Below the pieces are notes generated by a model, which did not search any database, was not told the DNA's origin, and was given only the letters and a program-made list of their open reading frames with translations. Below, one piece after another: positions 10,047-63,754 of a stretch of 64,000 nt of DNA. The number at the start of each line of letters is the position of its first letter. The stretch's first letter is position 1. Made by a program: the position numbers and the translations under genes. Source of the stretch: an uncultured virus (IMG/VR IMGVR_UViG_2675903231_000002) (lineage: Duplodnaviria > Heunggongvirae > Uroviricota > Caudoviricetes); the IMG/VR virus record IMGVR_UViG_2675903231_000002, one strand, 5' to 3'.

Positions 10047-10075
10047 GCTCGGGAAACCGAATGGCTGAACATCAT

Positions 10076-10235
10076 CAGTCTATCCCGGCGTGGAGACCCC
10101 TGCCTTTAGGTATGAGGAGGAAGCGCCGCCATCAGCAGTGGCATGGCTGCTACCGGCGGGCTGCTGTCAGCCAGCCTATCGTGCCAGCTGTAAGGCTAGG
10201 TGCAAGCCCCGCCCTTAAGGACTGGGGTAGCTTAC
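10076..10235 (+). mobile_element. Non-autonomous miniature IS200/IS605 derivative (PATE-like): left end fused to the tnpB 3' end and right end
   Basis: Near-identical to the reverse complement of 18790-18847 (left end) joined to 17577-17679 (tnpB 3' end and right end). Confidence 0.9.
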
Positions 10236-10288
10236 GTCGTTTTCTGGTGCAACAAGCAGGGCAATGAAATCCTTCACAACGGCCAAAG

Positions 10289-10757
10289 ATGACAACAAAT
10301 CCTCACGTAAGTTTTCTGATGCAACCCGGCGAAGGGTGGGAAAACCGGTGAGAGTAGCGAAATGGAAACAAGTTGTAACACAGGTTTTCTGATGCAACAT
10401 CGCATGATGCAACACCTTGGCCGCCCGTACATCGCATGGAAACAAGTTCTCACATAGATTTTCTGATGAAACAATCCGGGCGGTCAGTGGCTCTGGGAAG
10501 GCGATGGAAACAAGTTCTCAAGGTAGATTTTCTGATGCAATGTTGGCTGAAGACATCACCCATGTTCAAGCCGAGCTATGTAAACAAGTCCTCAAGTAGA
10601 TTTTCTGATGCAACGAGCGTCAGCCTATCGCACAGTATGAGCTCACTTTTATGTAAACAAGTCCTCGTGTAGATTTTCTGATGCAACAAGGTCATCGGTC
10701 CCGGATAGGCAGGTCTCAAGCATGTAAACAAGTCCTCATGTAGATTTTCTGTGCAAC
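10289..10757 (-). CRISPR. CRISPR array 1: 7 repeats of about 37 bp, 6 spacers of 31-37 bp, plus one older interrupted repeat ending at 10253
   Basis: Plus-strand consensus ATG(G/T)AAACAAGT(T/C)CTCAnnTAGATTTTCTGATGCAAC at 10289, 10362, 10436, 10504, 10578, 10651, 10722; directly downstream of cas6; strand inferred from cas orientation and the decay gradient. Confidence 0.92.
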
Positions 10758-10777
10758 CCTTCGTTTACGATTACGTA

Positions 10778-11605
10778 TTAGACCTCATATTCCCAGAGTT
10801 GCGTCGTATCGGATTGACACCATGCCTCCGTGTGGACAGCCCCGCCAGCGCTGAGTTGGATGCAACGCTCCCACAGTGTGCCCCATCCCCAAGTGGTTCC
10901 GGAAGCTATCCCCCATAGTGTAGCCATCTGAAGCCACACGTGACCATCTGCCACTACATCCGGCCGACCGTGATACATGACTTGGCCCACGAATCCATGA
11001 CATTCGAGTTTGTACCCCTGACGATTTGTATGTGACGTCTGCATTACAGACCCATACTGCATGCCAGGAACCAGTGAAGACTCGTCATACCAGATGAAGC
11101 TGTTGGGTGCCAGCTTCAGCGAGAACCACTCTCGTGCCATGGTGGAGAACTTCTGTCGCGTTAGTGGGATGAGCACATCCATGCGCGGCGGTTGGCGAAA
11201 GCTGAAACGGATATTCTTGCGCGCCAGGTACTTCAGTGTGTTCTCGGCGTAATAGACGGGCGTGATGAACTGCACGTACAGTGTGTCTCCTTCCGCCTCC
11301 TCGTAACGGACAGAGACGTGTTCCGCCTCCGGGTATGCGAATCGCACAACGCTTTGCATCTCTTCATCTACCGCAGGCACCCATGCGATTCGCACGTGTT
11401 GCCCATCCAGGTCAGGAAAGACACGATATGGGCTGGTCTTTCGCACGCGATTGTCCCACCAAGCGGGCATTCCTGCCGGCCGGCGGGCCAACAGGTCACC
11501 TATCTTGGATCTAACCAGACCCGCATCTGTTCCAGGAATTCGAACCACCTTTGTTTCGACCATCATTTTCTGAACAGCCTCTTTTGGGCTGAGCGTGTCA
11601 AGCAT
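10778..11605 (-). CDS. cas6: Cas6-like crRNA processing endoribonuclease
   Basis: 'VQFITPV', 'GFVGQVMY' and C-terminal G-rich loop 'WGIASGTTWGWG'; ATG overlaps the recD stop; adjacent to array. Confidence 0.75.
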   Translation of the reverse strand: MLDTLSPKEAVQKMMVETKVVRIPGTDAGLVRSKIGDLLARRPAGMPAWWDNRVRKTSPYRVFPDLDGQHVRIAWVPAVDEEMQSVVRFAYPEAEHVSVRYEEAEGDTLYVQFITPVYYAENTLKYLARKNIRFSFRQPPRMDVLIPLTRQKFSTMAREWFSLKLAPNSFIWYDESSLVPGMQYGSVMQTSHTNRQGYKLECHGFVGQVMYHGRPDVVADGHVWLQMATLWGIASGTTWGWGTLWERCIQLSAGGAVHTEAWCQSDTTQLWEYEV

Positions 11606-13637
11606 TCTGCGCTTCCTCCTCCCACACGACGGCCGCCGGTGCAAGGACTGCACCTGCCTGTTGAATCGTTCGCTCAAGTGCGGCGTTGAGGCGACGTGTA
11701 AGACGATTGTCGATTGGCGGAACCTTGGCTTCTCGCACCTGGCGTACCATTTCATCCGGGTTTTTTGCCATCACCGTCAGACTCGTCTTGGCCCGGGTTA
11801 AAGCCGTGTACAAAAGCCGCGGATCCTCATATGCCTCTGGCATCACGACAAGAACGTGGGCTCGTTCAGCGCCTTGCGCCTTGTGGATGGTGAGTGCATA
11901 TGCTAGAGACCATTCATCAATGGCTTCCATCTCGTCCAATGTGGTTTCGGTGTCATCGTCAAATCGGGCCGTGATGACGCCATCATCGACGCTTACAATG
12001 ACACCCATCTCACCGTTTTTTCGACCAGTGGTGTAGTTGGGAGCGTTCTGCACGATGCGCAAGCCCGGGCGCCATTTGACGTCGCCGCCGAGAAACCAGC
12101 TATTGATCTGCTGTTGACCAATGGTCCGCGTCTCCGTCGCATCCCGGAACGGCGTCAGAATCAGCCAATCAGTCGCATCAAGACCGCCATGTTCCTCCAC
12201 CCACTGCATGATCTTCTGCCGCCAATGCTCTTCGGAGTCTGTCTCAATGGCAATCGCATTTATTACCGGCGGATGCCATGTCCATGGCTGGTCGATGTCC
12301 CAAAACCGGTGCGCCACTTCAGCTAATGAGCCAGCTGAACGATGAGGAACCGACAGCGTTCTGGAGGCTCTTGATACGATTGGATGAGTCAGACAGGTCC
12401 GGAATGGCTGACCGAATCCGACAGGTGGCAGTTGATTCGCGTCCCCGATGAAGACCACACGCAGATTGTGGTGTGTGAGTGTGGACCACACAATCGCGTG
12501 GAAGGTTTGCAGGTCGCACATGCTGGCCTCGTCAACCACTATCCATTGGTCCTGTCCGGAGGCCGGGAACGACCCTTTCTCCACACGTGACGAATGGTTA
12601 AATAGAGCATACGCGGAGTGAATGGTGAACGCCTGAATATCTGCCACGTCACGCAAGCGCTTGGCGGCAAGGCCCGTTGGTGCAAGACCGGTAACGGCAT
12701 CGTTCATACCGAGCTTGCGGGTCGTGTCTGCCAAGGCCTTCACTAATGTGGTTTTGCCCGTCCCGGGCCCGCCTGTGACCATGGTCAAGGGCTGTGTCCA
12801 CATGGCTGCCAGGGCTTCCTCTTGTGAGGTGTCTAGCGCCAATTCACTGACCAGCGAGGACCAATTTTGCGGCAACGAAAACGAGGGCCTGCGTATGTGC
12901 TCCGCCAAGGCCTCCGCGATCTGAATTTCTGACCAGTAGGCCCACTGTGGGTACAGGCGCAGTTTTCCGCCAACTTCCTGGTGAACTGCGGGAAACGGCG
13001 TGTCGAGTCGTTTGTCAGACGGATAAATCGCCCTCCAGTTCTCAACGAGTCGGCGCGCGTATTCTTCTGCTTTGCCGTTGTGCCGGCCGAGGTACCGGGC
13101 GGCCAATTGCACGGCGGCGCTGGATTTGGCGATGCGGATCACGGAATTCCCCGATTGCCACACGTGCCCGCATGCAGCAACGAAAAATCCTCGAATCCGC
13201 TTCTCTTCCAAGCGTGTCTCGTGAGCGTACTTGGCGTCGATGATCGCCAACTCAGGCAGAGACAAGGCTTGGCCGAGTACATATGGGTTCGTCTGAATTT
13301 CCTCCACACAATGCTGTATTGACGTAGCGTGATTGTGTGCAATCTCCTCGACGGCGTTGAGCAGAGTCCCGTATGGAATGCCCGTTGATAATACCTCGTT
13401 CAAGTGTTCGTGGATGAGCCCGTGGATTTGGTTGCGGCACCACCGCGCGGTCCACTTTCGAACGGAATCAGGGATGTCCAACGGTGCATTGAGCACCCAC
13501 TGAGGAGTGGGAAACGACATGTCTTGTGTCAATGCACCTTCTTCTCTCGCTTTCATGACCGCGGCCAAAAAAATGCGTCCGTAAGGGTGCTTGTCCAGTT
13601 CCGACATCCAGTTCGACGAACCGGAGGACTTTTTCAC
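11598..13637 (-). CDS. recD: RecD/RecD2-like SF1B helicase associated with type IV Cas genes
   Basis: GGPGTGKT, LAPTGLAA, VVDEASM, IGDANQLPPV, AYALTIHKAQG, LLYTALTRA; GTG overlaps the csf3 stop. Confidence 0.92.
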   Translation of the reverse strand: MKKSSGSSNWMSELDKHPYGRIFLAAVMKAREEGALTQDMSFPTPQWVLNAPLDIPDSVRKWTARWCRNQIHGLIHEHLNEVLSTGIPYGTLLNAVEEIAHNHATSIQHCVEEIQTNPYVLGQALSLPELAIIDAKYAHETRLEEKRIRGFFVAACGHVWQSGNSVIRIAKSSAAVQLAARYLGRHNGKAEEYARRLVENWRAIYPSDKRLDTPFPAVHQEVGGKLRLYPQWAYWSEIQIAEALAEHIRRPSFSLPQNWSSLVSELALDTSQEEALAAMWTQPLTMVTGGPGTGKTTLVKALADTTRKLGMNDAVTGLAPTGLAAKRLRDVADIQAFTIHSAYALFNHSSRVEKGSFPASGQDQWIVVDEASMCDLQTFHAIVWSTLTHHNLRVVFIGDANQLPPVGFGQPFRTCLTHPIVSRASRTLSVPHRSAGSLAEVAHRFWDIDQPWTWHPPVINAIAIETDSEEHWRQKIMQWVEEHGGLDATDWLILTPFRDATETRTIGQQQINSWFLGGDVKWRPGLRIVQNAPNYTTGRKNGEMGVIVSVDDGVITARFDDDTETTLDEMEAIDEWSLAYALTIHKAQGAERAHVLVVMPEAYEDPRLLYTALTRAKTSLTVMAKNPDEMVRQVREAKVPPIDNRLTRRLNAALERTIQQAGAVLAPAAVVWEEEAQNA

Positions 13638-14305
13638 TCTGATTCCCTCCATACAGCGTCGTAACTGCGTACTCGGCACAGTACGGGCTCGTGATGGAAA
13701 TACGGTGGCTCGATGGCGTGGGCGTCAAGGATTCCTCGGAACCCGTTCTCTCTTGCATAAGATTCTGGAACGGGTCGGAGAACAAGACTGTCAACGCCAG
13801 CGATTGCGGAGTTGAGATCCGGCCGGCGTCGCAAGATTGCTCTGGCGATCCGGCCCATCCCACGCTGTCCCTTTTGCCCCACGTACATACCAGGAAGTCT
13901 CTGCGCTAGGCGAGCGAACTCGTCCACTTGCTCAGCGTCCACATCGACGAAGAAGTACAGGAGCGGGACAGACAGGTACGTGTATCGTACCATGGCACCG
14001 CGGAGAATCCCTGAGCTGGTCTCAATGGGTTTGAAAAACCACGGGGTGCCCTTGAAAACCGCTTCTTCCCCAGTTTCCATGGTTGGTGCAAAGAGTGCTG
14101 ACACCGCCCAGAACTGGCCATCTTGAGACTCGAAACGTCTCACTGGCAAGGAGATTGGTTCCCATTGGTCCGGATCGCGCCGGTTTGCCGCGTCCGGATA
14201 CAGTTCCCGCGCACGTGCTGCGAATAAGAGTGCGTCTCCCATCAAAACGCCCCTGCGCGGCAGGAAGACTGGTGCCTCCAAAAAGAGGCGGACCTCGAGG
14301 ATCAC
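13634..14305 (-). CDS. csf3: Type IV Cas5-like RAMP
   Basis: RAMP N-terminal strand, 'GQKGQRGMGRI' G-loop, 'LRPVP', 'PPYF'; position after csf2. Confidence 0.8.
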   Translation of the reverse strand: MILEVRLFLEAPVFLPRRGVLMGDALLFAARARELYPDAANRRDPDQWEPISLPVRRFESQDGQFWAVSALFAPTMETGEEAVFKGTPWFFKPIETSSGILRGAMVRYTYLSVPLLYFFVDVDAEQVDEFARLAQRLPGMYVGQKGQRGMGRIARAILRRRPDLNSAIAGVDSLVLRPVPESYARENGFRGILDAHAIEPPYFHHEPVLCRVRSYDAVWRESE

Positions 14306-15234
14306 GACACGGACACTTCCTTCATGGCGACGTAGAACGGCTCCTTATGGGTCAGGAGGAAGTGCAGCATGTCCCTGTTTTGTCTGACATACTCTGTGAA
14401 CATTGACGGATCCAGACGTTCATCTTCCGGAATTCGTTCCCAGGACACGAGGCCAAATCCGCTCTTGGATTTGCCGCCGAAAAACGGCCGGTTGCGAAGC
14501 CGCTCAATTGCCAAACCCATCATGCTCCAATCCATGGGCGTTGCATTGTCGTGGAGCGTGAAACGCACGACAAACGGATAACCAGGCAGCACATATCCGT
14601 GAGTTACCGGCATGTTGCGGAATGGGTTCTTTTTGCCCTCTTGGTCATCAGACACCACTTCAGGCAGTCCGATGAGGGAAGGCATTTCCGGCATGCGATA
14701 GGTTGTCCAAGCACCGTTGTTGGTGAAGCTGTCCTTCAGTGCAAAGTCCTCAAACCAATCGTCCGGGAGCGTGGGAAAGAGAACTCGTAGCTCGTTTGAA
14801 GCCGGATATGCGTGTCCCAGGGCGCACCGACTGGTAATAAATTGACCTCCAACGACACCACCTAGCAGACCAAACATCGGCAGCAGCTGCTTAACCTTCT
14901 CCACATCATCCAACGACAGACGCACCTCGTTTGTGATGAGCACCCCGCCACTGGTAAGCGTGTGGTACGTGATCTTCTGGCCGCGCGTTCCATGTCCGTA
15001 GAAGGACACAGGATCGATCCCCAGTTCCTCAAAGAGATACCCGGCCAACTCCCGGCGAATACGGCCGCCGAAGCTGTTGCCGGAGAGCACCGGAGCCTCC
15101 ACGGGCGCTTCCTCACCCGTGTACACTTTGAGGGTTCTCAGTATTCCGCGGGACTCACCTTCCTCTCGCCGCGATTCAATCGATTGGAACAAGGGGGTGA
15201 GAGTGCGAAAACGCAGGTACAGATCACTCGGCAT
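14302..15234 (-). CDS. csf2: Type IV Cas7-like backbone RAMP
   Basis: 'TLTPLFQ', 'PVLSGNSFGGRIRR', 'LTSGG', 'FGLLGG', 'GGKSKSGFG'. Confidence 0.85.
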   Translation of the reverse strand: MPSDLYLRFRTLTPLFQSIESRREEGESRGILRTLKVYTGEEAPVEAPVLSGNSFGGRIRRELAGYLFEELGIDPVSFYGHGTRGQKITYHTLTSGGVLITNEVRLSLDDVEKVKQLLPMFGLLGGVVGGQFITSRCALGHAYPASNELRVLFPTLPDDWFEDFALKDSFTNNGAWTTYRMPEMPSLIGLPEVVSDDQEGKKNPFRNMPVTHGYVLPGYPFVVRFTLHDNATPMDWSMMGLAIERLRNRPFFGGKSKSGFGLVSWERIPEDERLDPSMFTEYVRQNRDMLHFLLTHKEPFYVAMKEVSVS

Positions 15235-15937
15235 GGGATTCCATCTCCTTTTTCCGGTGTGTCATGATAATGGCCCGAGTCCAATCTCTTAGTGCTTCCT
15301 CTAACGGTTCGAGAATGGGATCGAGCGTACTGCGGATCTCCTTTGGCTTGGGGTACCCATTGATGCGCCAGTCATTTTCGAGCGCCGCAACGCGCTCCGC
15401 GATATCTGCTGGCGCGTACATTGGCTTGGAACGCCAAACAATGATCCAATTCGGATCGTAACAAACTTTCCCACGGAAGATGGTGTGCTTTTGCTTGTAC
15501 GATCCTTCGACCGCGACAGCCAAGAGCGGGCGAATGCGAGGAATCCTGTACCACGGAAGCTCATATGTGTCCCACGGGAAGAACGAGGTGAAATCCTCAC
15601 CTTTTGTGCCATATGCGAGGAAGCTCCACGCATTTGGTGCATTCTGCAGTCCAAATGTGAACATGAGTGCGCATGACTCACACAACCAGGGCGACATGAC
15701 TGGGAAGTAGTCATGGTCAGTAAATGTGGTCAGCAATATGTCACTTCGTGCATACGCTTGTCGTACGCGACGAGTGCAAAAGGAACACCGGGCGTCCACA
15801 TCGTGAGGGGGATGGTCGATCTTCCAGTCGGTACGAGTTTTAACGTGTTCGGCAAACAGGTCGGAAAGAAAAATCAATTTTCCACCTTCTCTGCATGTTC
15901 TATCGCAAGTTTGGGGAAGCGCTGTTCCCTGCGTCAT
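15224..15937 (-). CDS. csf1: Type IV Cas8-like large subunit
   Basis: Zn-binding CSFC...CESC pairs and 'KQKHTIF' motif; first gene of the csf operon. Confidence 0.75.
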   Translation of the reverse strand: MTQGTALPQTCDRTCREGGKLIFLSDLFAEHVKTRTDWKIDHPPHDVDARCSFCTRRVRQAYARSDILLTTFTDHDYFPVMSPWLCESCALMFTFGLQNAPNAWSFLAYGTKGEDFTSFFPWDTYELPWYRIPRIRPLLAVAVEGSYKQKHTIFRGKVCYDPNWIIVWRSKPMYAPADIAERVAALENDWRINGYPKPKEIRSTLDPILEPLEEALRDWTRAIIMTHRKKEMESHAE

Positions 15938-17273: not shown

Positions 17274-17543
17274 TCATCGTAATCGTTCCGCTTCGACCTT
17301 TCGAAGGTATTTCAACAGCACCGTGCCATGCCATCCTCCCTGGTCCCAATTGATATAGGCACTCTTCCCTGTTAGGGACAGTCCGTCTATGGTGCCGCGC
17401 CCCCATTCCGGGTGCAGTCTGTGGACCACACGGTCGCCTTCTTTGAATGGCGGCGTCTCAAAGTACGCTGCAATCCTTGCTCGCAGCTCCTCGGTAAGGC
17501 CTTCTTCATGAACCCGACGCAATAGTTTCTCTGCTTCAGTCAT
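17274..17543 (-). CDS. small SH3-like (DUF3553-type) protein
   Basis: 'FKEGDRVVHRLHPEWGRGTI'; AAGGAGG RBS. Confidence 0.55.
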   Translation of the reverse strand: MTEAEKLLRRVHEEGLTEELRARIAAYFETPPFKEGDRVVHRLHPEWGRGTIDGLSLTGKSAYINWDQGGWHGTVLLKYLRKVEAERLR

Positions 17544-17576
17544 GTCTCATGATCCTCCTTTATCCTGCGAAATTAC

Positions 17577-18847
17577 GTCAGCTACCCCAGCCCTAAAGGG
17601 CGGGGCTTGCACCTAGCCTTACGGCTGGCACGATAGGCTGGCTGACAGCAGCCCGCCAGTAGCAGCCATGCCACTGCTGGCAAGGTACTTCCGGGCAATG
17701 TTGCGAGCCGCGTTCAAATCAGCATTCAGTTCAAATCCGCAGTTCCGGCACAAGAAGCGTGATTGCGTCCGTCGGTTAGAACGGTGGACGTATCCGCAAC
17801 ATGAGCACATCTGCGACGTATGGCGAGGGTCAATGCCAACGACAACGCAACCCTTCTCCACCGCCTTGTATTTCAGGAACGAACGTAATTGTGCAAACGT
17901 CCACGAATGCAAGCGGCGGCGGGACTCTCGTCCGCGTTGCTTGACGCGCGTGCGGATGTGATTCAAGTTCTCGACGACAATCACAGTGCCGGGTTCAACG
18001 GAATCGACGATACGCCGACTGAGAACGTGGTCGCAATCGCGGCGGAAGCGGTGAACCTTCCCGGACAGGCGGCGCAAATGCCGCTTGGCCGAGCGAGTGC
18101 CTTTCGCCTGAAGCGCACGCTTCAATCGGAAATACCTGCGGTCAATCTCTTTCCAACGCTTCTCACCGAGGAAGTTGGCGGTGGATGTGACAGCGGGATG
18201 GTTCAATCCCATGTCCACGCCGACGACATTCCCGGTTGGGGAGAAGGAGGCATCTGGAATGGTCACCACGAGATGCAGCCAAAACCGGCCCTTTCGATAG
18301 ACCAGATCGGCGCTATCGAAGCCAGTAGCTTGAGCGAGGAGACGATCCGCATGTGGATTGCGAGCGAATTCAACCGACTGACGGCTTGCAACCGTAGAAA
18401 GGCTGACAACACTCGCGTTCGGGTGAAATGTGTATGTCCGCGCATCGTACCGGATCGGGACCAAGTTCCCGTGGGGGCAAGACGTCTTGCTGCCTTTCTT
18501 CAACCGGTTCAAAGCGGACTTGACGGCCTCCGTCGCACGCACCCGCGCGGCAATCAAAAGTTGCGCAGGCAAGTCCGGATGTTCCACACGGAGAGTGCGG
18601 TACGTCTCGTGGTGCAGCGTCACACCGTTCTTACAACGCTTCTGCCAGCCAACAGCACAGACAGCGTTAAAACAAGCGGTGTGCTCCACGAGGGTCCGCA
18701 ACAGAATTTCCTCCTGTTTGGTTGTGGGTTTCAACAACAATCGGATCGTTCTCCTCATATTTCATACCCTAGCACATTTCGCAGAAAGAGGATGGCGACG
18801 CTCCTCCCCATGCCTAAAGACAGGGGTCTCCGCGCCGGTATAGACTG
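17577..18847 (-). mobile_element. IS200/IS605 family, IS1341-type (tnpB only) element 1
   Basis: Subterminal hairpins (ggagacccctgtctttaggcatgggg at left end; gccccgccctttagggctgggg at right end); ends in TGAC and is preceded by TTAT. Confidence 0.85.
17619..18758 (-). CDS. tnpB: RNA-guided endonuclease TnpB
   Basis: RuvC D-E-D (VGVDMG, VVENL, NADLNAARNI) and zinc finger CSCCG...CRNCG. Confidence 0.95.
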   Translation of the reverse strand: MRRTIRLLLKPTTKQEEILLRTLVEHTACFNAVCAVGWQKRCKNGVTLHHETYRTLRVEHPDLPAQLLIAARVRATEAVKSALNRLKKGSKTSCPHGNLVPIRYDARTYTFHPNASVVSLSTVASRQSVEFARNPHADRLLAQATGFDSADLVYRKGRFWLHLVVTIPDASFSPTGNVVGVDMGLNHPAVTSTANFLGEKRWKEIDRRYFRLKRALQAKGTRSAKRHLRRLSGKVHRFRRDCDHVLSRRIVDSVEPGTVIVVENLNHIRTRVKQRGRESRRRLHSWTFAQLRSFLKYKAVEKGCVVVGIDPRHTSQMCSCCGYVHRSNRRTQSRFLCRNCGFELNADLNAARNIARKYLASSGMAATGGLLSASLSCQP

Positions 18848-18937
18848 ATAAGATATCCGCTTACGCCGCTTTTTATGTACATCTCGTTCGCGCCCGACAG
18901 AAACATACACTTCGTGTGCGTTGGGTTCATGTGTATG

Positions 18938-43891: not shown

Positions 43892-46800
43892 TTACGGCTG
43901 CGAAGGTTGGACGAAATACCACTGAGGTCGATCTGCTGTCACGAGAAAGTCGTTGTTAACGAGGTCATTCTCGCCACAATCGTCATAGGCTTTGATGGTG
44001 ACACTGATGTGTACCCCGTCAGGGAGTTTCGGCATGATGGTCTCTCCCTGCCAGAACTGCGGCAGATTGGACGCCGGGTGCATTTCCACCGTCCATGAGG
44101 TATCGCCCTGCGCGTCTACTGTGCCTACACTGGCTCCGCCGTTGACCGAAAACACCGCCTCCACCTTGGTGGGTTGTGCGTCCGGGAACTTCACCGCAAA
44201 GGCGAATGGTGCTTGCACTCGAAGCGGGATAGGTGCGTACCCGAGCATCTCATTGGTCACAGGTAGGTGCACCTGGTTTCCTGGATACTGCTGCGTCAGT
44301 TGATCTGTCGGGTTGAAAATCCCGTCCACTTCGAGATTAGTGATGGTAAGTGGCACCCTTTTTGTATCGGTCAGTTCACCGTTCGTATAGGTCTCGTAAA
44401 TCTCCGTGCCATCTCCACTTGGATCACAGCTGATCGTGGAGTACGAATCCCCTACCCTGCCTTGTCCGGTATCCGTCACCGTCACTTGATTGCTTGCTGC
44501 CAATACCACGCCTTGTTTGTCTACCAGTAGAGCAATGTACTGAAGCGATGTCCCGGGTACCGGACTGTATGGGACCGAAATGCTTAGGCCGTCCGAGTTC
44601 GGCTTCCATGTCGTGGAGACGGCCTTTTGCCACGTCTGGACAATCCGGATGTCCACTGTAGCAGAACCGCCAAGACTCTGATTCACGAAGTCAGCATCCG
44701 TTTGGACGAAGGTCACCTTGAACTGCGTCTGAGCAGGATATGTGACATTCTCCGGTAAAGCTTGCAGTGTGAAATTGTCGGGTGGCGTGACGTTGTTGAA
44801 CCACGTTACGGACACTGGCGACGATGTAGCAGAGACGTTCTGCGCCGGCGTAGTCACCGTATACGACTGTTGTTGGTAGATCGGCTGACTTGGGTTTTCC
44901 TGCAACACGTATTCCGTCCAGTTCCAGGTGCCGACCGCACCGGAAAACCAGCCGTTTGGAAGCTGCAACACATATCCAGTAGTTGTCCATCCCGACGGGT
45001 TAGACGTGGATAGTATGGTTTGTCCACCGGATGTAACAGTCAAGCTCACTCCGGCAGAATTGTTGCTTGTACTGGCAAATCCGTTATTGTTCATGGCCTC
45101 AATAATGACCTGGTGCCGTCCGGCGGGCAGAGTGATCGTGGCACTGGATGTGTTGGGTATACTGCCCCCGACACCCCCAGAGTTACCACTTTGCATGACC
45201 GGCTGACCGTCCACGTAAACCTGAGCATAGTCATTAACGTAGGGCACAGAAAGCGTGATCGACTGTGTTTGCGACAAGCTAAACGTTGATTGGAAAAAGA
45301 CTGTTCCGTTCGGCTGTGACGTCGAATTTGATACCCAAATTGAACCACCGTAGCTACCGGCTTGCGCTTGTTGAGTGAACACCGATGTCGGGACGTAACT
45401 CGGTGCATTCTGGAATGTCCAGAAGGCAAAGTCGTTTGACACCGTCCGCGTCACTGTTAGAGGTATAAACCCGCTTCCGGGCGTCAAGTTTCCCGGAAAA
45501 GGAGTAACCGTGCCCGACGAAAGAGAATACTCCGAGAGAACTATAGGAGGATTTGACTGATTCCACGGACTATAGTTCGGTGGCACATAGTACCCAATTA
45601 ACCCATTGGAATATGGATCATACGCAATATCTAACATGTCCACCGGCAATGACCATAGTTGACCGGATGGTGTGAACTCTAATGAATTAAAGTTGGAATA
45701 GAAACCTGAAGCCTGAATTCCGTTGACATATAGATTCCCAGATACAGTATCCACAACAGAGGGCGACTGATACTCATACCAAGCCTGATTGGTACTGATA
45801 TCATTGTAAGGGGACGACGGAGATTGTCTTGGATCCCACAATATCCAATAAGGGTTGTATAAATTGACACCGCCCTCAAATAGAACATCCTGATTTGCAG
45901 GGTCATAGATCAACCAACCAATATCCCCGTGACCACCAGCATTGCCAATAGGCGTCCAAGTCTTCGTGGTGAATGAATACACATAGAGATCATTGTCCAC
46001 GGAGTCTCCTTGATGACTAGCGTGAACTGATTCATAAACCAAATTCAAAGGCGGGTAATAAGTGAAACCTGCCATATGACCATCACCAAATGGTGGATGA
46101 TCAACTGGACTGGACCAAAGACCCGTTGATAAATTCAATACCGCAAATTGGCCGCTGGAGTTGTACGCGATAATGCTGTTTGTTAAGGAATTGTATCCAT
46201 TCGGTACCGCGCTCCCAACGGGAGAAGGATAGTCGGTCCAAGCCCCTGTAGCAATCTTATATGATGCAATTCCATCCGATGATTGAACCCAAACAACGCC
46301 GTTATTTGGAATACCGACTGTGTTTGGATACCCCTGGACATATGACGGTGTTGCAATAGGCGTTAGTGTCCCAGTTGAAGTATTGAATACTTCAAGTTGA
46401 CGACTTGTGGAATTGTATCCATAGACAAGCTCAGTGTAAAAAGCGGCCCCACTCAATCCTGGTATTTGCGGATTCCCAGGTTGGACCACCCGGGCGACAT
46501 ACGTATCTGTCTCCACCTGATTCTTGGTTTGCAATGCGTTAAGCACAGTCTGCCCTGGCTGGCCGGTGGCGATGGTCTGCCCCGTCGTCTGATCCACAAT
46601 GTCGATCACATACCCGGAAGGCAGATTCGCTGCTGTAGCCGTCAGCACCGATGTGTTGTTGATTGGCAGCTGCGTGGGATTCGCAGTCAATGTGATCCCA
46701 TACCAATCCACAGAGACCGTGTTGCTGCTGATCAAAGCACCCGACGTACCGGAATTCGACGAGATATAAGCCACAAACGTGTCCGTCCGCGGTATTGACT

Positions 46801-49759: not shown

Positions 49760-49890
49760 GCCAATTCCCCCGTTGAAAGGCCAAGTTAACAGCTCGACCG
49801 TAACACGCAACAAACGCAAAAACGCGCAACTTTTGTGCCAACTTTCTGCTTGCTGAAAGCGCTTGGAAAAGGGGGGGCGTACGAGCAACC

Positions 49891-50055
49891 TTGACGTATA
49901 TTTCGGCTGTGCTACACTAAACATGAAAAGAGAGCCGAAGGCGGCGACCTTCGACTCTCGGGCACCGACGCCTTGAGCGTTATCCCTGCCCGTAAAATCG
50001 ATCGGGCAAGTAACCGCCCCACCGGCGCTAACCTATGGGGGCGGTTACTTGCGTC
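49891..50055 (+). ncRNA. Putative type I antitoxin RNA with promoter
   Basis: TTGACG-16-TACACT promoter, hairpins, terminator caagtaaccgcccc...ggggcggttacttg overlapping the toxin 3' end convergently. Confidence 0.6.
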
Positions 50056-56972: not shown

Positions 56973-57941
56973 TTATAGGCCGATGCGAGCTGCGGCATTG
57001 GCACGGAACAGGTTTCCGTCTCGTATGTACCGTCGTACCATCATGACACTCCTGTGACCTGTCTGAGCCATTATTTCTCTTTCAGACGCCCCAGCCATTG
57101 CGGCGGACGTGGCCAGCCCAGCCCGGAGGCTGTGTCCAGCGTATTTCCGGGCGTCCAAACCGATGACTGTCGTGTACTTCTTGACAATACGAGCCACCGT
57201 TTTGTCAGAGAGGCGATCTGTGCCAATCTGACGATCCTTGGTCACCCTGCGAAACAGGGGGCCCGACGAAATTCCCGACTCCTCCAACCAGGCCTGCAAC
57301 GTGCGCACGGGACAGGTCTCCAGGTAAGATCCGTACGGAATCCCCACCTTTCGGCCTTCACCTTCCTGGTCCGTCTTACTGCGGCGCAGCGTTATGATGA
57401 GTCCTTCACGAGCGAATTCGACGTCTTCGACATTCAAGGAGACCAGTTCGGATCGCCGAAACGCCCCGGCAAACCCAATCAGAAGTAGTGCTCGATCCCG
57501 CAGCCCCATCAGATCGTCTGGCGCGTGCCGCAGCATTCTTCGAAGGTCCTCCACGAGCACAGGGGATTTGCCGTTTGGGGCAACGCCAATCGTGTTCCGT
57601 ATGCCTCTCCAGACGGCTTTCACGTTTTCGTCGGACGCAGGTGACGGATATCCCTTGGCTTTGTGGGCCAGGCCGATGGAAATCATGCGCCGTCCAATCG
57701 TGCTGGCCTTGTACCCCTCGTCTGCCAGATACGAGAGATACAACGCCACGGTGGTTGGATGTGCGGGCAACGAACACACCCCCCGTTCATCGCACCAACG
57801 GGAAAAGGACTGCCAATCGGACTTGTACGCCTTGACGGTGTTCTTCGCCTTGGAGTGGCGCATGTAATCGTGTGCGCTCTCCACCAGTTTTGCCACCGAT
57901 GTTGTCGCTTGTTGAGTTGGCTGCGGAATTCGGTCAGGCAT
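56973..57941 (-). CDS. Tyrosine recombinase/integrase (Cre-like)
   Basis: RDRALLL..FRRSEL, RSKTDQ, GHSLRAG, TGHRS...RY catalytic residues. Confidence 0.95.
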   Translation of the reverse strand: MPDRIPQPTQQATTSVAKLVESAHDYMRHSKAKNTVKAYKSDWQSFSRWCDERGVCSLPAHPTTVALYLSYLADEGYKASTIGRRMISIGLAHKAKGYPSPASDENVKAVWRGIRNTIGVAPNGKSPVLVEDLRRMLRHAPDDLMGLRDRALLLIGFAGAFRRSELVSLNVEDVEFAREGLIITLRRSKTDQEGEGRKVGIPYGSYLETCPVRTLQAWLEESGISSGPLFRRVTKDRQIGTDRLSDKTVARIVKKYTTVIGLDARKYAGHSLRAGLATSAAMAGASEREIMAQTGHRSVMMVRRYIRDGNLFRANAAARIGL

Positions 57942-57955
57942 GCCTCAATCGCCCC

Positions 57956-58007
57956 CTGGCAAGGTACTTTCGAGCAATGTTGCGAGCCGCGTTCAAATGA
58001 TCATTCA
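57956..58007 (-). pseudogene. tnpB 3' fragment (LNAARNIARKYLA)
   Basis: 57956-57998 matches 17677-17719 at 41/43 bp; both differences are synonymous. Confidence 0.85.
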
Positions 58008-58055
58008 AGTGATCTGATGCACAGTAGATAGCGTGCAGCAGGCCGAAAAGAGCTC

Positions 58056-59059
58056 ATGGCAACAAATTCTCACTTCGATTTTCTGATGTACCCCGTATTG
58101 CGGCCACGCTTGACCATCTTGTAGATCTGATAACAAATGCCAATATATCTTTTCTGATGTACCGCTCTTTCGGGAGCATTGTGAGCGCCTACACCCCATG
58201 GCAACTAATTGCCACATAGATTTCTCTGATGAAACCAAGACGATGGCGACCGGACTTAAGCGTGTCGACCGTCCACAGCCGTATGGTCACGTTCAAATAG
58301 TAACAACTTCTTACTCGGCTTTTCTGACGCGACTAAACCGTGGAGATCACCGTCGACATGCACGCGCCTATGGCATAAAAATTCTCACGGAGATTTTCTG
58401 GTGCAACGCGTTACGGCGCCGGACCTTGAGACTGGTTCGCCGGCTATGGAAACAAGTTCACAAGAAAGTTTTCTGATGCAACAAGATGGAGTTCGCGGCG
58501 TTCGCGGAGGCCGTCATCTGGAGATAAATTCTGAAGTAATTTTCTGGTTGTCACCGACCTGGCTAGCGCCAACTGGTGCATGCGATGGAAACAAGTTCTA
58601 ACGTAGTTTTCTGATGCAAACCTATAGACGGTACCGATGTGCCGGTGGATCACGGAATGGAAACAAGTCCTCACGTAAGTTTTCTGATTCAACATGACGC
58701 ACGGTTCCTCGAACACTCACTGGGATCGGTATGGAAACAAGTTCTCAGGTAAGTTTTCTGATGCAACGAACTCTCCCGCGCGGTCAAGCAGGCGCAAGTC
58801 AAATGGAAACAATTGCTGACATAAGTTTTCTGATGTAACTCTGTCCGGCTTCACCACGATGCGGGTCTGGATCTCATGGAAACAAGTGTTCTAACATTGG
58901 TTTTCTGATACAACGGCGCAATCAATCGGTGGCTGGCCGAGGTGCTCCAGATGGAAACAAGTTCTAACATAAGTTATCTGATGCTACAGCCCACACCCGA
59001 TCCCGCGGTTGCCTCTTTGGTTATGGAAACAAGTTCTAGCATAAGTTTTCTGATGCAAC
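58056..59059 (-). CRISPR. CRISPR array 2: about 14 repeats of the same family as array 1, decaying toward low coordinates
   Basis: Repeats at about 58056, 58127, 58198, 58297, 58370, 58446, 58518, 58585, 58657, 58731, 58803, 58876, 58951, 59023; consensus ATGGAAACAAGTTCTnACnTAAGTTTTCTGATGCAAC. Confidence 0.92.
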
Positions 59060-59088
59060 CCTTCGTTTACGATTACGTATTAGACCTC

Positions 59089-59311
59089 CCGGATTAGCAC
59101 CATGTCCCCGTGCGGACAAGACGCTCTGCTGCCTTTCTTCACGTGCTCACGAGGGTCCGCAAGAGAATTGCAATCTGCTCGATTGTGGGTTGCAATAGCA
59201 ATCGAATCGTTCTCCTCACATTTCATATGCTATCACCTTTCGCAGAAGGAGGATGACGGCGCTCCTCACCATTCTTATAGGAAAGGGTCTCCACATCGGG
59301 TATATGAACAG
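59089..59311 (-). pseudogene. Decayed IS605-type left end plus tnpB 5' fragment with internal deletion
   Basis: Translates MRRTIRLLLQPTIEQIAILLRTLV then KKGSRASCPHGDMVLIR, matching TnpB at 17619..18758; upstream DNA aligns to 18759-18847. Confidence 0.88.
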
Positions 59312-59699
59312 ATGACCCCAGTCGAAGAAAGTCGCGGTCGAAAGAAACGATACCTGCCTCCGCGTCCCGACTCCGACACACCAGGTAAGCATCTGTGAAA
59401 TCGACGTTCTGCTCCGCGTACATTGTAAGGCTCTCCGTTAAACGGTCTTTGTCTTCGCACATGATTCCTTCGAGCAGCAAAACCTCCGCCAATGCACGAG
59501 CGACGTCCGAACGGTTTCTGACGTACACCGGGCCAGTCAGTACGTAAATGCACTCGGCGAGAACCATTGGCTCAATGTAGAGAACGAACTCACCATGTTC
59601 TGCCTGCTCAAACACATTCACCGCCGCATGATACATTCCTTCATGGTCACGCAAGAGATACCTGAGAATGATATTCGTATCAAGAAACAAAGTTTTCAC
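59223..59699 (-). CDS. vapC: PIN-domain (VapC-like) toxin
   Basis: FLDTNIILRYL, LAE, DFTDAYL, SFDRDF; C-terminal tail runs into the IS left end. Confidence 0.9.
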   Translation of the reverse strand: MKTLFLDTNIILRYLLRDHEGMYHAAVNVFEQAEHGEFVLYIEPMVLAECIYVLTGPVYVRNRSDVARALAEVLLLEGIMCEDKDRLTESLTMYAEQNVDFTDAYLVCRSRDAEAGIVSFDRDFLRLGSSVHIPDVETLSYKNGEERRHPPSAKGDSI

Positions 59700-59980
59700 T
59701 GTTGTCCTTCCTCCTTACCGGATAAACGAATACCCAATTCCTCTTGAGTTCTCTTGCGTGCCTCATCAATCGGAATGTAAGGTGTTCCTTCCTGATAAAG
59801 AGAACCGCCCAGCTCACGAGCAGACTTCTTCCGAAGTGGACGAATCAATATCTCCCCTTGGTCCGTATACTGAAACATCACCTTATCTCCTACTCTAAGC
59901 CCTTCCTTCTGACGAATCTCCAGCGGTATGGTGATTTGAAACTTAGAGGTTATTGTGCTGATGTGTATCATGTGAATCAC
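59696..59980 (-). CDS. AbrB-type antitoxin (VapB-like)
   Basis: 'STITSKFQITIPLEIR...GDKV'. Confidence 0.88.
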   Translation of the reverse strand: MIHMIHISTITSKFQITIPLEIRQKEGLRVGDKVMFQYTDQGEILIRPLRKKSARELGGSLYQEGTPYIPIDEARKRTQEELGIRLSGKEEGQQ

Positions 59981-60944: not shown

Positions 60945-61271
60945 TCACGCATCTTCTCCTGTTCCGCTGCCATCTGGTAGGTTTTGCGCCTCCCACTCGG
61001 AAATTGCTTCGAAGGCATTCCCGACGATGTCTTCATCATCCAGCCCCCGAACATCAAGAACTGCTATCCGAATATCTTGCTGTGGGTACGGCCGGCGGCG
61101 GAAGATGGTGAGATACAGATTTTCCTCCACATCTACGCTGTCATAATGAATTTCCTTCGGAGAATCGAAGAGCGAGCCTGAAATGCCTTGACCGTCATCG
61201 TGAACACGTAATTGTCGAGATTGACCGTGCTCGTATCGTTCTTCACACGGACACCTCCAGTAATTGTTCAA
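60945..61271 (-). CDS. acidic hypothetical protein
   Basis: Follows the ThiF gene in the operon. Confidence 0.5.
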   Translation of the reverse strand: MNNYWRCPCEERYEHGQSRQLRVHDDGQGISGSLFDSPKEIHYDSVDVEENLYLTIFRRRPYPQQDIRIAVLDVRGLDDEDIVGNAFEAISEWEAQNLPDGSGTGEDA

Positions 61272-62061
61272 TGGCAGCCTCCGACCGCATCCATCCGCGG
61301 CGCGCCTCGAAGAACGTCCGATGGTGCAACAAAGTGCCGTCCGCCAGTAGCGTGTGCAGATACATGAGCACCGTTGTCGCGGCCATGAGGTTGGTCATCA
61401 GGCGCTGCGGATTGGAAACGACCACTTCGCCGCACGAGACCTCCGTTGGCAATCGGTCCTCCTCGATCAGATCGGGGAACACCTCGCCCGGAAACGGCAG
61501 AACGTCTTCGCCACGAATGCGGACCCCGACAACCACCTGACCTTCCCAGCCAGAATCCTTGATCTTCGCCAGCTGGTATCGGTCCACATGCCCGGGATCA
61601 TCCGGCACGGTGACGGCGCTGTTGCCGCTGTCGATGTACACAACGTGGTTGAGACAATGCAGCTGCTCGTGCAGGATGCGGCGGGTGCTACCGTTGTCTA
61701 CTGCGCCCACCACAATCGTCCCATCTGCTACGCCGATTCTTTGAAGGTTTGTCTCCCGCGTCAGATACTCCGGATAGGCCGCGATGTCGAGGCCGTAGGC
61801 CCTGGAGTACCGCTCCGCCAACACACTGGCCTTCTTGCGGCCAATGTCCTGCGGGAGGAAGTATTGGCGGAGGAGATTTTTCTCTTCCACCACATCCCCG
61901 TCTATCAGCAGCACTCCCGGCACCTTGCAACCCTGCTCTTTGAGCGAGTAGAGCAGGCGGGCGACCTGCTGTAACACGTAGCCGCCCGTGCCGCCCACAC
62001 CAACGAGGATCAGCCGTGTGCGTTCCGGGTCCACGACGCGAACCGGTTTTACTGTGCTCAT
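61243..62061 (-). CDS. ThiF/E1-like adenylyltransferase
   Basis: LVGVGGTGG, IDGDVVEEKNLLRQ, KASVLAERY, GAVDN, SC. Confidence 0.9.
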   Translation of the reverse strand: MSTVKPVRVVDPERTRLILVGVGGTGGYVLQQVARLLYSLKEQGCKVPGVLLIDGDVVEEKNLLRQYFLPQDIGRKKASVLAERYSRAYGLDIAAYPEYLTRETNLQRIGVADGTIVVGAVDNGSTRRILHEQLHCLNHVVYIDSGNSAVTVPDDPGHVDRYQLAKIKDSGWEGQVVVGVRIRGEDVLPFPGEVFPDLIEEDRLPTEVSCGEVVVSNPQRLMTNLMAATTVLMYLHTLLADGTLLHHRTFFEARRGWMRSEAAIEQLLEVSV

Positions 62062-62987
62062 ACGGGGGTCACCACCGCAGTAATGGGACCGTCGAAGACG
62101 GCCGAGGCCTCCACCTTGACGAACTTGCCGCCGCATGAGTACCGGAAGGCAAGAGTGGGCCTCTCCCGATCCGCTTCTCCAACTACCCCGTACAGACCCG
62201 TTCGTACCTCGTCCTCGTCGTCTGTCGCTGACCAGTAGGCGGGTAGCCGGCCGTGCGAGTGGATGTGAGCGACCACGAAACGGTGTTCAGTTTCCATGAA
62301 GCCCTCGCCTTGTACGGTGACGGCCGAGGCCTTTTGCTCGGGCCACACCACATCGTAGCCAATGTCGGTGTCGTACACGATGTACGCCAGGTGCTCAATG
62401 TCCGGCTCGGACTGAAAGCGTTGCACAATCTCGCTCAGACACCAGACAGGAATTTTCGGTACGAACAGATGGAGCGGCGCACGCAGGCCCGTGCTTCCGT
62501 ACACGGGTGCGGCGAAGATGCCTACTTGTGTTTGCCGAACCTCATAAACACGGCCATCCCTGTCGAGCAAGTAGTACACCGGGGGCACCGGCGGGGCCGG
62601 CGGCTCCGTGTACACGGTGATCGCCGCCCCTTTCTTGTGGCCCTTGAGTACGGGTACGATGTGGCCCGTTTCCTTGTCATAGACCATCTCTGTGCGCTCT
62701 TTCGTGAGCTCCGGGAAGGTCTGCTCCAGCCAGGCCCGTACATCCTCCAGTTTCATCGTCCGGCTGGGTACTTCGAGCCGGTGACCCGCGTAGTAGACCA
62801 CACGATCAATTTCGTACTCGTCCGGTTCTGGTTCCTCAGCCGGTTTGGCTGTGGCCTTGGCAGACGTGGTACGCGTTGTCGGCTTCTTCACGGATTTCTC
62901 TGGCTCCAGCACCTGTGGAATCAGGCCCTTGCGCTCGTCCTCCGGCAGAAGGTCGAAAATCGTGGTTTGCTGGATGTTCGTGTTCAT
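62058..62987 (-). CDS. Ubiquitin-like domain fused to JAB/MPN metallopeptidase
   Basis: JAB motif E...HSH......S..D (HIHSHGRLPAYWSATDD); upstream 'FPELT...KKG' Ubl-like domain. Confidence 0.8.
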   Translation of the reverse strand: MNTNIQQTTIFDLLPEDERKGLIPQVLEPEKSVKKPTTRTTSAKATAKPAEEPEPDEYEIDRVVYYAGHRLEVPSRTMKLEDVRAWLEQTFPELTKERTEMVYDKETGHIVPVLKGHKKGAAITVYTEPPAPPVPPVYYLLDRDGRVYEVRQTQVGIFAAPVYGSTGLRAPLHLFVPKIPVWCLSEIVQRFQSEPDIEHLAYIVYDTDIGYDVVWPEQKASAVTVQGEGFMETEHRFVVAHIHSHGRLPAYWSATDDEDEVRTGLYGVVGEADRERPTLAFRYSCGGKFVKVEASAVFDGPITAVVTPV

Positions 62988-63016
62988 GTTCCATGTCTCC
63001 TTTTGGTTTAGATGAT

Positions 63017-63754
63017 TTAGTACCGTTCGGCCCGGTATGCGTTGTGAAATTCAGGGACGGTTCTCCCGAACGGGATGAGCCATTCGTGGGAGATGCCCCC
63101 GTTAGCTTGGACGGCTTCTAAAAATGTGGCGTACTCCCTGTAGGGCGAGTTCTGGCTGGTTCCCACGCCGAATAGGTCGCGATTGTTGGGCGTACTGATG
63201 AATCCGAACACACCCCTGTTCACGACTTCGTGCAGCTCGCACACAGTGTTGTGCGTCCAGCACACGCGGCCGTCATCAAACACGTTAGAGTACGGCCAGC
63301 GGTACAACGGAGAAATCTCCGTGACCACGGAATCTGTCGTGACGGCAATTGAAAGACCGATAAGCTGTTTTGTATGCAAGGTCCAGCGGGCCCGGTAGAC
63401 TATCGTCGGGATGTGCACCAGATACGAAGCGCCCTGATACACCATCGGATACTCGGTCGCCGGCACGTATCCCGTGAGGATGACATCTGTCCAACGGGAG
63501 CACTCCGCGATATCAACCATGAGTGTCCGATCCGGCAAACGTGGCAGTTTGGTGACTCGCAAGTCGGCCACCTTGAGTTGCTCAACCACCATGGACCGAT
63601 CCAACAGGGTAAGCAGCTGGTGCCACCCTACCGTTTTGTAGTGAGTGACGCCGTTTGCCCTAATCTCGAGTTCCGGAAGCTTGTCCGGTTCGAGTTTGAG
63701 AATCAGAGCGTCGGCGGCCTCCTTACCTTTCGTGTGGAGGCTTACGGTGTTCAT
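63017..63754 (-). CDS. Prokaryotic E2-family protein
   Basis: 'LYRWPYSNVFDDGRVCW' E2-like motif with catalytic Cys; adjacent to JAB and ThiF genes. Confidence 0.75.
   Translation of the reverse strand: MNTVSLHTKGKEAADALILKLEPDKLPELEIRANGVTHYKTVGWHQLLTLLDRSMVVEQLKVADLRVTKLPRLPDRTLMVDIAECSRWTDVILTGYVPATEYPMVYQGASYLVHIPTIVYRARWTLHTKQLIGLSIAVTTDSVVTEISPLYRWPYSNVFDDGRVCWTHNTVCELHEVVNRGVFGFISTPNNRDLFGVGTSQNSPYREYATFLEAVQANGGISHEWLIPFGRTVPEFHNAYRAERY

Follow-up and report, generated by a model that had tools for sequence, protein, structure and literature searches.

How does a CRISPR array come to stand between the pieces of a transposon gene? This question is raised by positions 57956-59311 of the IMG/VR virus record IMGVR_UViG_2675903231_000002, in which an array, designated array 2, lies among fragments of tnpB, a gene of IS605-family insertion sequences (IS). 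The 64,000-nucleotide stretch analysed here (the window) is the start of the 91-kb contig C49 in a draft genome of 3.79 Mb and 95 contigs. Our overall verdict is that the isolated type IV-D array is itself ordinary and that what surrounds it is a real and unusual scar, seemingly left by recombination, rather than a novel mobile carrier of CRISPR arrays. The history that we tentatively place first, judged from sequence only, is that array 2 is an isolated array, distant from the cas (CRISPR-associated) genes, inside the remains of one tnpB-only IS605-family element. The remains, that is the left end and the tnpB pieces, are called the shell below.

The flanks of array 2 (57800-59500, minus strand) were compared by blastn with the region of IS-A, an intact element of the family (17400-19000, minus strand), and three Plus/Plus high-scoring segment pairs (HSPs) were obtained in collinear order. 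The parts of the locus, in the order of the minus strand, and the other elements of the family on the contig are as follows.

59312..59315, minus strand: TCAT target motif, directly 5' of the shell left end and within the final vapC codons, found by flank comparison
59220..59311, minus strand: decayed IS left end, part of the 123/151 HSP and of an alignment with IS-A and the mini-IS
59139..59219, minus strand: tnpB N-terminal remnant, with a GTG start and 26 codons, then a frameshift and TGA
59089..59141, minus strand: tnpB mid fragment, about codons 86-103 of IS-A (43/53), after a 178-bp internal deletion from segment 1
59060..59088, minus strand: 29-bp leader core GAGGTCTAATACGTAATCGTAAACGAAGG, identical (29/29) in arrays 1, 2 and 3 of the genome
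58024..59059, minus strand: CRISPR array 2, with 13 head-matching repeat units of about 37 nt and one decayed unit near 58548
58008..58023, minus strand: truncated terminal repeat of array 2, 16 nt in length, 12/16 identical to the head of the repeat and at the correct spacing
57956..58007, minus strand: tnpB 3' fragment, RuvC-III motif region, about codons 343-361 (48/52)
17575..18849, minus strand: IS-A, the intact tnpB-only IS605-family reference, with tnpB at 17619-18758 and the right-end module at 17575-17680
18986-20107, minus strand: tnpB of IS-B, a second tnpB-only IS605-family element, in tandem with IS-A and upstream of the cas operon
10074..10237, plus strand: mini-IS, made of 60 nt of left end (53/60 to IS-A) and 105 nt of right end (100/105)

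The first HSP (segment 1) pairs 59292..59143 with 18831..18681 (81%, E 1e-37) and spans the left end and tnpB codons 1-26, the second (segment 2) pairs 59141..59089 with 18502..18450 (81%, E 7e-10), and the third (segment 3) pairs 58007..57956 with 17728..17677 (92%, E 2e-17). Relative to IS-A, about 720 bp of tnpB are absent between the flanks of array 2. Segment 1 carries the stub peptide VRRTIRLLLQPTIEQIAILLRTLVST, read from the GTG start, segment 2 carries KKGSRASCPHGDMVLIREV, and segment 3 carries HLNDHLNAARNIARKYLARG. An earlier note on this DNA had quoted these three peptides, all of which were found, and had proposed that the pieces are collinear and co-oriented with the intact tnpB and bracket the array; the alignment that it called for bears this out. 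Its further statement, that segment 3 is 41/43 identical to the intact gene with synonymous changes only, holds for the core LNAARNIARKYLA, whereas among nine further aligned bases there are two non-synonymous changes (A to D and D to H). No intact tnpB is left in the shell, which consists of the 26-codon stub and two out-of-frame fragments.

On the upstream side, the shell ends as other elements of this family do. The IS termini were defined by comparing the mini-IS with IS-A. In 400 genomes of the class the family has two further members, L206, with 73% amino-acid identity, and the partial L207, with 84%. All five elements have T[C/T]AT at the left flank, namely TTAT in IS-A and TCAT in the mini-IS, the shell, L206 and L207. 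At 59315-59300, TCAT is followed directly by CTGTTCATATAC in the shell, in agreement with the target flank of the family, and 41 of 67 columns are invariant in a three-way alignment of the left ends of the shell, IS-A and the mini-IS. The similarity extends to 59311, where the left end had been placed before. This junction falls within a toxin gene, and the final 29 codons of the vapC open reading frame (ORF) are IS left-end sequence.

59223..59980, minus strand: vapBC-like toxin-antitoxin pair, with vapB at 59696-59980 and PIN/vapC at 59223-59699, co-oriented with the shell and immediately upstream

A complete left-end terminus abutting TCAT, as in the rest of the family, points to a true IS insertion at the 3' end of vapC. 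By this evidence the left end of the shell is a genuine transposition junction, and a whole IS would once have sat at that place.

IS200/IS605 elements with tnpB only have an ISDra2-type organisation, in which the right end encodes a guide RNA. In IS-A, the 105-nt right end folds into four hairpins and overlaps the 3' end of tnpB. Near array 2 no right end was found, and the genome-wide search for right-end matches gave only 17575-17679, 10133-10237 and 18945-18972. Segment 3 stops at the base that corresponds to 17677, and the first right-end hairpin of IS-A begins at 17678. The next gene on this side starts 15 nt past the tnpB 3' fragment, with no IS right end between them.

56973..57941, minus strand: tyrosine recombinase gene (Phage_integrase, 1.2e-17)

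Since the shell is without a right end, the present structure is not expected to be excisable by the Y1 transposase TnpA, and the shell now appears to be an immobile scar. No Y1 TnpA was found within the shell; the genome has three partial matches to the Y1 transposase family (PF01797), two of which are cut by contig ends and one of which has an internal TGA. The suggestion that the IS shell had carried the array is unsupported for the present copy, given the absent right end and the lack of a second copy or of a relative in the collections searched.

Array 2 itself has the regular direct repeats and unique spacers of a CRISPR array. Fourteen units match the repeat head in all, the last being the truncated terminal repeat at 58023, and with the leader at 59088..59060 this agrees with the layout described earlier, a 29-bp leader followed by about 14 repeats. 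The period is 69-75 nt with two longer intervals, one of 138 nt after 58620, in which the decayed unit near 58548 was recognised by eye, and one of 98 nt after 58333. The leader-proximal repeats are well conserved (31-36 of 37 positions, with six good ones) and the distal repeats are degenerate. A Mu Gam-like gene at C53:88651-88686 matches spacer 7 (58550-58585) with 100% identity across 34-36 nt, and array 2 has therefore taken up spacers. The 3' half of the terminal repeat is tnpB sequence with no match to the repeat consensus, and the junction between repeat and tnpB has a microhomology of ACT/ACTT.

The repeats and leader of array 2 relate it to the cas operon and to two further arrays of the genome.

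10778..15934, minus strand: type IV-D cas operon with csf1, csf2, csf3, a recD-like helicase gene and a cas6-like gene, assigned by PADLOC models
10238..10786, minus strand: array 1, cas-adjacent, with eight repeats and a terminal repeat split by the mini-IS; its leader is at 10758-10786
10801..10838, minus strand: 38-nt tnpB-like piece, upstream of the array 1 leader and inside a 3' extension of the cas6-like ORF
C68:647-1556, plus strand: array 3, with the same 29-bp leader

The PADLOC matches are typeIV_Cas8/Csf1 (2.6e-06), typeIV_Cas7/Csf2 (2.5e-36), typeIV_Cas5/Csf3 (3.5e-18), typeIV_RecD (RecD_0_IVD, 6.4e-55) and Cas6 (6.1e-06). Cognate cas genes are thus present on the same contig as array 2, and the array, which had been called type IV before, can be referred to subtype IV-D with its RecD helicase. 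Array 2 has the repeat family and leader of the cas-adjacent array 1, and the two are identical at 57 of 66 positions over the leader and first repeat. Because the repeats of array 2 decay away from the leader and array 1 lies directly after cas6, array 2 is expected to be transcribed on the minus strand, in the orientation of the tnpB pieces. Other arrays of the genome were considered as a source of the repeat and rejected; four of the eight candidate regions gave a Tandem Repeats Finder (TRF) consensus, three being arrays with different repeats, and no consensus came from the remaining four.

On the 5' side of the leader core, arrays 1 and 3 remain alike over a further 14 bases (9/14, anchored), and the native leader was therefore at least 43 nt long. 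Array 2 lacks 22 nt on the 5' side of the core, and array 3 is unrelated to the others beyond that upstream stretch. A breakpoint hot spot at the 5' edge of the leader, which was considered as an explanation, is unneeded when the similarity of arrays 1 and 3 extends further and array 2 merely lacks this sequence. The repeats of array 3 are the most uniform (seven identical), and no cas genes adjoin it within the 14.5-kb contig C68. The newest repeats of array 3 (…TTTACAT) match the newest of array 1, and its oldest match the type of array 2 (…TTTCCAT). No spacer of array 2 was found in array 1 or 3. Two spacers of array 1 (10615-10650 and 10542-10577) are 100% identical to the 54.9-kb contig C70 (C70:54105-54140 and C70:13594-13629, respectively), in ORFs without Pfam matches. 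From these matches, the spacers appear to target co-resident elements without loss of the targets, and the arrays would have acquired them from those elements.

The 38-nt piece before the array 1 leader has its best match in IS-A at 18479..18442, which is the position of segment 2 (27/38; 0 of 500 shuffles attained the score). Compared with segment 2 of array 2 it is identical at 24 of 29 positions, and it reaches nine nt further into tnpB (7/9). The tnpB pieces of arrays 1 and 2 have five derived bases in common, and the other pairings have three and one. Since such pieces precede the leaders of both arrays, the leader is taken to have been fused to tnpB codon ~105 before arrays 1 and 2 split. 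Array 1 has no IS left end, and its link to cas6 would at present be a secondary join. The leader common to three arrays, the tnpB piece before the array 1 leader and the assignment to subtype IV-D are points absent from the earlier note. The Cas6 profiles stop at about residue 292 of 324 in the cas6-like ORF. As a separate observation, the end of this ORF (10778-10876, minus strand) runs about 30 codons past the profiles, through the tnpB-derived piece in another frame, and its stop is a TAA within the 29-bp leader.

A history in three steps would account for these parts. A complete IS would have entered 3' of the TCAT at the vapC end, an event of which the junction is still seen. The interior of this IS (about codons 105-343) would then have been replaced by a leader-array segment that already had a tnpB 5' piece at its leader, most likely by recombination through tnpB/left-end homology on the left side, with the right side closed within the terminal repeat by joining at a microhomology. 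The 105-nt right-end hairpin module would have been lost as a third step. The incoming segment is regarded as an older tnpB-leader fusion that was transplanted, because array 1 has a piece at the same tnpB position with the five shared derived bases. The collinearity of the pieces, the intact TCAT junction and the simplicity of the recombination mechanism support a single resident IS. Two variants were tried and rejected. If an IS had first entered the terminal repeat in inverted orientation, in the manner of array 1, a reverse right end would be expected by the truncated repeat, and none was seen. A junction that lacks TCAT/TTAT does not fit the other variant, in which TnpA would have aberrantly excised a co-oriented IS from the terminal repeat.

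The alternative that survives best, which we regard as possible and somewhat doubtful, is that two IS copies of the same lineage were involved. One would have inserted at the vapC end upstream of an existing array and the second, co-oriented, within the distal end of the array or past it; deletions would then have fused tnpB codon ~105 to the leader and joined the terminal repeat to codon ~343 with loss of the right end, leaving segment 3.

Several observations weigh against a single resident IS, and some of them speak for two copies. One IS with a replaced interior and two IS copies with deletions would leave the same picture, and of the original claim that the array took the place of the central part of a tnpB gene, the collinear nesting and the true left-end junction stand, while the replacement itself is matched equally by the two-copy history. 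Contig C49 holds no fewer than four members of the family, whole or as remnants (IS-A, IS-B, the mini-IS and the shell); IS-A has a single full copy genome-wide, and all fragments of it are on this contig (eight HSPs). The mini-IS lies 3' of a TCAT within the terminal repeat of array 1, in the orientation opposite to the array, which shows that insertions of this sort occur here. In array 1 as in array 2 the terminal repeat is broken at repeat position 16/17, by different and oppositely oriented IS parts. A single deletion would be enough to make the tnpB-leader fusion. Taken naively, the identities lean to different ages, segment 3 (92%) being nominally less diverged than segments 1 and 2 (81%; Fisher p 0.089). 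The end of segment 3 (17677) and the internal junction of the mini-IS (17679) agree within 0-3 nt, and the only account that we can offer for this coincidence is the foot of the first right-end hairpin. The link between the 5' part of the shell and array 2, over about 45 shared bases, rests on one short-read draft assembly. No relative with the repeat, the leader or the arrangement was found in the collections searched, and thus no empty site, site with an intact IS or composite with a right end. A promoter consensus scan, which demands a -35 element, gave no site on the array strand and one on the plus strand.

The difference in identity vanishes once it is scaled by regional rates. Between IS-A and L206, identity is 54% for the coding part of segment 1, 66% for segment 2 and 77% for segment 3. 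The 5' part of tnpB thus evolves at about twice the rate of the 3' part that bears RuvC-III, and 81% versus 92% fits one lineage; scaled in this way, 5.2 mismatches are expected in segment 3 and four are seen (P of four or fewer = 0.39). The three segments are therefore compatible with one lineage, as far as such rates can tell, though not necessarily with one copy. A history with two IS copies further needs four or more deletions and two insertions whose orientations agree, a 1 in 2 chance, and no trace of a left end or of 5' tnpB was found between the terminal repeat of array 2 and segment 3. The terminal-repeat junction of array 2 is also without TCAT/TTAT on the strand that a co-oriented IS requires. 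The single resident IS with a replaced interior is kept as our tentative preference.

Another explanation is that a composite of left end, tnpB 5' part, leader, array, tnpB 3' part and right end was once mobile, moved into the vapC TCAT by TnpA acting in trans, and later lost its right end; we consider this decidedly unlikely. The complete left end flanked by TCAT is the expected trace of a transposition, but a plain IS inserting first accounts for that junction equally well. The tnpB-leader fusion at two loci (arrays 1 and 2), the Y1 transposase fragments noted above, and the existence of a deletion derivative of the family (the mini-IS) are in keeping with a mobile composite, whereas the right-end matches of the genome belong solely to IS-A, the mini-IS and IS-B, no second copy was found in the genome or in the collections searched, and array 1 has no left end. 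We know of no precedent for repeat cargo of about 1 kb in this IS family, and this is also counted against it. The broader idea that whole CRISPR arrays use IS605-family elements as vehicles or landing pads, either because a shell with both ends transposed the leader-array as cargo with TnpA in trans or because dispersed IS copies offer one-sided homology for leader-array hopping between loci, is unlikely as well; if true, it would explain the presence of three same-leader arrays in three contexts of the strain.

Birth of the array in place within tnpB, by off-target spacer integration at a site resembling a leader or repeat, such integration being one proposed origin of isolated arrays (PMC13142298), or as a step of TnpB towards a Cas12-type locus, TnpB lineages having been repeatedly linked to arrays (PMC10691335), is rejected as highly improbable, since about 720 bp of tnpB are gone between the flanks, the repeats and leader are those of the other type IV-D arrays with no HSP between repeat and IS, the 3' half of the terminal repeat is tnpB and unlike the repeat consensus, tnpB is broken down to a 26-codon stub, and the gene upstream of the array is intact in the TnpB/Cas12 loci that are known (PMC10691335).

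The continuity of the locus was examined with Logan contigs, which come from the sole DNA run holding the region, probably the source reads, and are not an independent check. They match 57700-58579 and 59059-59500 without differences, and this coverage confirms the distal junctions and the path from the left end through segments 1 and 2 to the leader. The Logan graph breaks at the leader node common to the three arrays (59046-59088) and at the spacer common with C53 (58550-58585). A mis-join is unlikely because the structure is coherent and collinear.

The earlier note had proposed to look among relatives for the same order of left end, array and tnpB 3' part, and none was found in the collections searched. 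A strict repeat pattern gave no match in the genome contig and viral contig collections, and with a looser pattern 69 and at least 117 loci came up, with one match each and none array-like. Against plasmids, blastn of the region matched only the integrase and one unrelated gene, and the array and left-end part searched alone gave no match. The integrase-bearing Alicyclobacillus plasmids showed no synteny with the region. For the Cas6-like protein no match was found among plasmids, and one, cut by a contig end, was found among 63 other genomes of the order. Among the hits of full-text literature searches, no title or abstract described an array nested between two halves of an IS605-type element, which does not prove absence in print.

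If array 2 is active, its minus-strand transcription would depend on signals that lie upstream, either read-through from vapBC or a tnpB promoter in the left end. Because only 29 leader bases are conserved, the promoter is placed in the local context, where these two are the candidates. In the aligned left ends, a TGnTAnnnT-like element about 10 nt before the start codon is conserved in the shell, IS-A, L206 and L207, the copies being TGATAGCAT in the shell (59235-59227), TGCTAGGGT in IS-A, TGCTACTAT in L206 and TGCGAATAT in L207. Read from this alignment, the element is a candidate extended -10. The promoter consensus scan gave no site in IS-A either, and no Rfam family was found at gathering score within the window. 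The Cas6-like protein would cut the transcript, and the Csf/RecD complex, which is encoded 47 kb away, would use it.

Comparison with known systems places the locus among isolated arrays. Such arrays have been described beside mobile elements and with a leader shared with a cas-adjacent array, and transfer mediated by mobile genetic elements is one proposed origin (PMC13142298). The type I-F CRISPR3 of Pseudomonas aeruginosa resembles array 2 in being a cas-distant array of the same repeat family with a near-identical leader, in its association with a mobile element, and in an origin thought to involve recombination with the cas-adjacent array (PMC13142298). In contrast to it, array 2 belongs to a plasmid type IV-D system, has a 29-43-nt conserved leader fused to a tnpB fragment, and is bracketed by collinear pieces of one IS family, the case being made here from sequence only.

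Type IV-D is known as a rare subtype on Firmicutes plasmids, and spacers against co-resident elements, as found here, are in line with reports for type IV systems (PMC7038947). The gene set (Csf1-3, RecD-family helicase and Cas6), the plasmid-like carrier and the spacer matches to co-resident elements are features in common with type IV-D on such plasmids (PMC7038947). Different from the known cases are the three same-leader arrays, two of them away from the operon, and the cas6 ORF that crosses a tnpB piece. Type IV-D repeats are reported to resemble those of type I-B (PMC7038947), and a similar repeat was not seen in the other arrays of this genome.

With tnpB-only IS200/IS605 elements, the family shares a fixed 4-nt flank at the left end, the TnpB domains, a hairpin-rich right end and a mini derivative of both ends (PMC10691335), whereas the shell around array 2 has neither a right end nor an intact tnpB and its interior is a foreign CRISPR array. 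In type V-U/Cas12f-like loci, too, tnpB sequence adjoins a CRISPR array (PMC10691335). In the TnpB-array loci described, the nuclease is intact, the array lies downstream and is thought to be derived from guide RNA, and transposon insertion near an existing array is one possible route (PMC10691335); here the array lies in mid-gene, the gene is destroyed, and the array is of class 1 type IV. With a broken gene, an array within that gene and no HSP between repeat and IS, array 2 does not have the features of a TnpB/Cas12-type locus. On these sequence features we file it as an isolated array of unusual architecture that IS traffic has reshaped.

If the locus is only a scar, it is a well-documented case of IS traffic reshaping plasmid CRISPR loci, in which the 29-bp leader stays intact while all surroundings of an isolated type IV-D array are replaced. 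Its weight would be greater if arrays, and thereby immune memories, prove to move between loci or replicons by way of IS605-type ends or copies, or if a left-end promoter does drive a type IV array. The locus offers constructs that can be tested, namely the left end with the candidate promoter, the minimal 29-43-nt leader, and the mini-IS with CRISPR-repeat sequence in its would-be guide position; this sequence forms the right flank of the mini-IS.

The other elements of the family show some further features. IS-A and IS-B (17575-20131, minus strand) stand head to tail with 36% amino-acid identity, directly upstream of the type IV-D operon, and have in common a 28-nt right-end hairpin core and a 34-nt left-end block. 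The proteins of both have OrfB_IS605 and Cas12f1-like TNB domains. A tnpB block of about 130 bp in IS-A (about 18001-18133) is 94-100% identical to L206 and L207, whereas the genes are otherwise about 70% identical and belong to different genera, which suggests either recent exchange or very strong constraint.

By DNA matches to Alicyclobacillus plasmids, the carrier is probably in or near Alicyclobacillaceae. Contig C49 carries VirB4/TraG-like and type IV secretion system pilin genes, ParA, an actin-like segregation protein, toxin-antitoxin pairs and a ubiquitin-like E1/E2/JAB cluster, and from this content it looks like a conjugative plasmid or a similar element. The cluster (61243-63754, minus strand) consists of ThiF (E1-like), JAB plus prokaryotic-ubiquitin, and Prok-E2 genes, and is a bacterial ubiquitin-like conjugation set; sets of this kind are linked to phage defence. 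At 43892-49924 (minus strand) there is an ORF of 2010 residues whose sole Pfam match is a weak one to Kelch_4, and an EAL-domain gene adjoins it.

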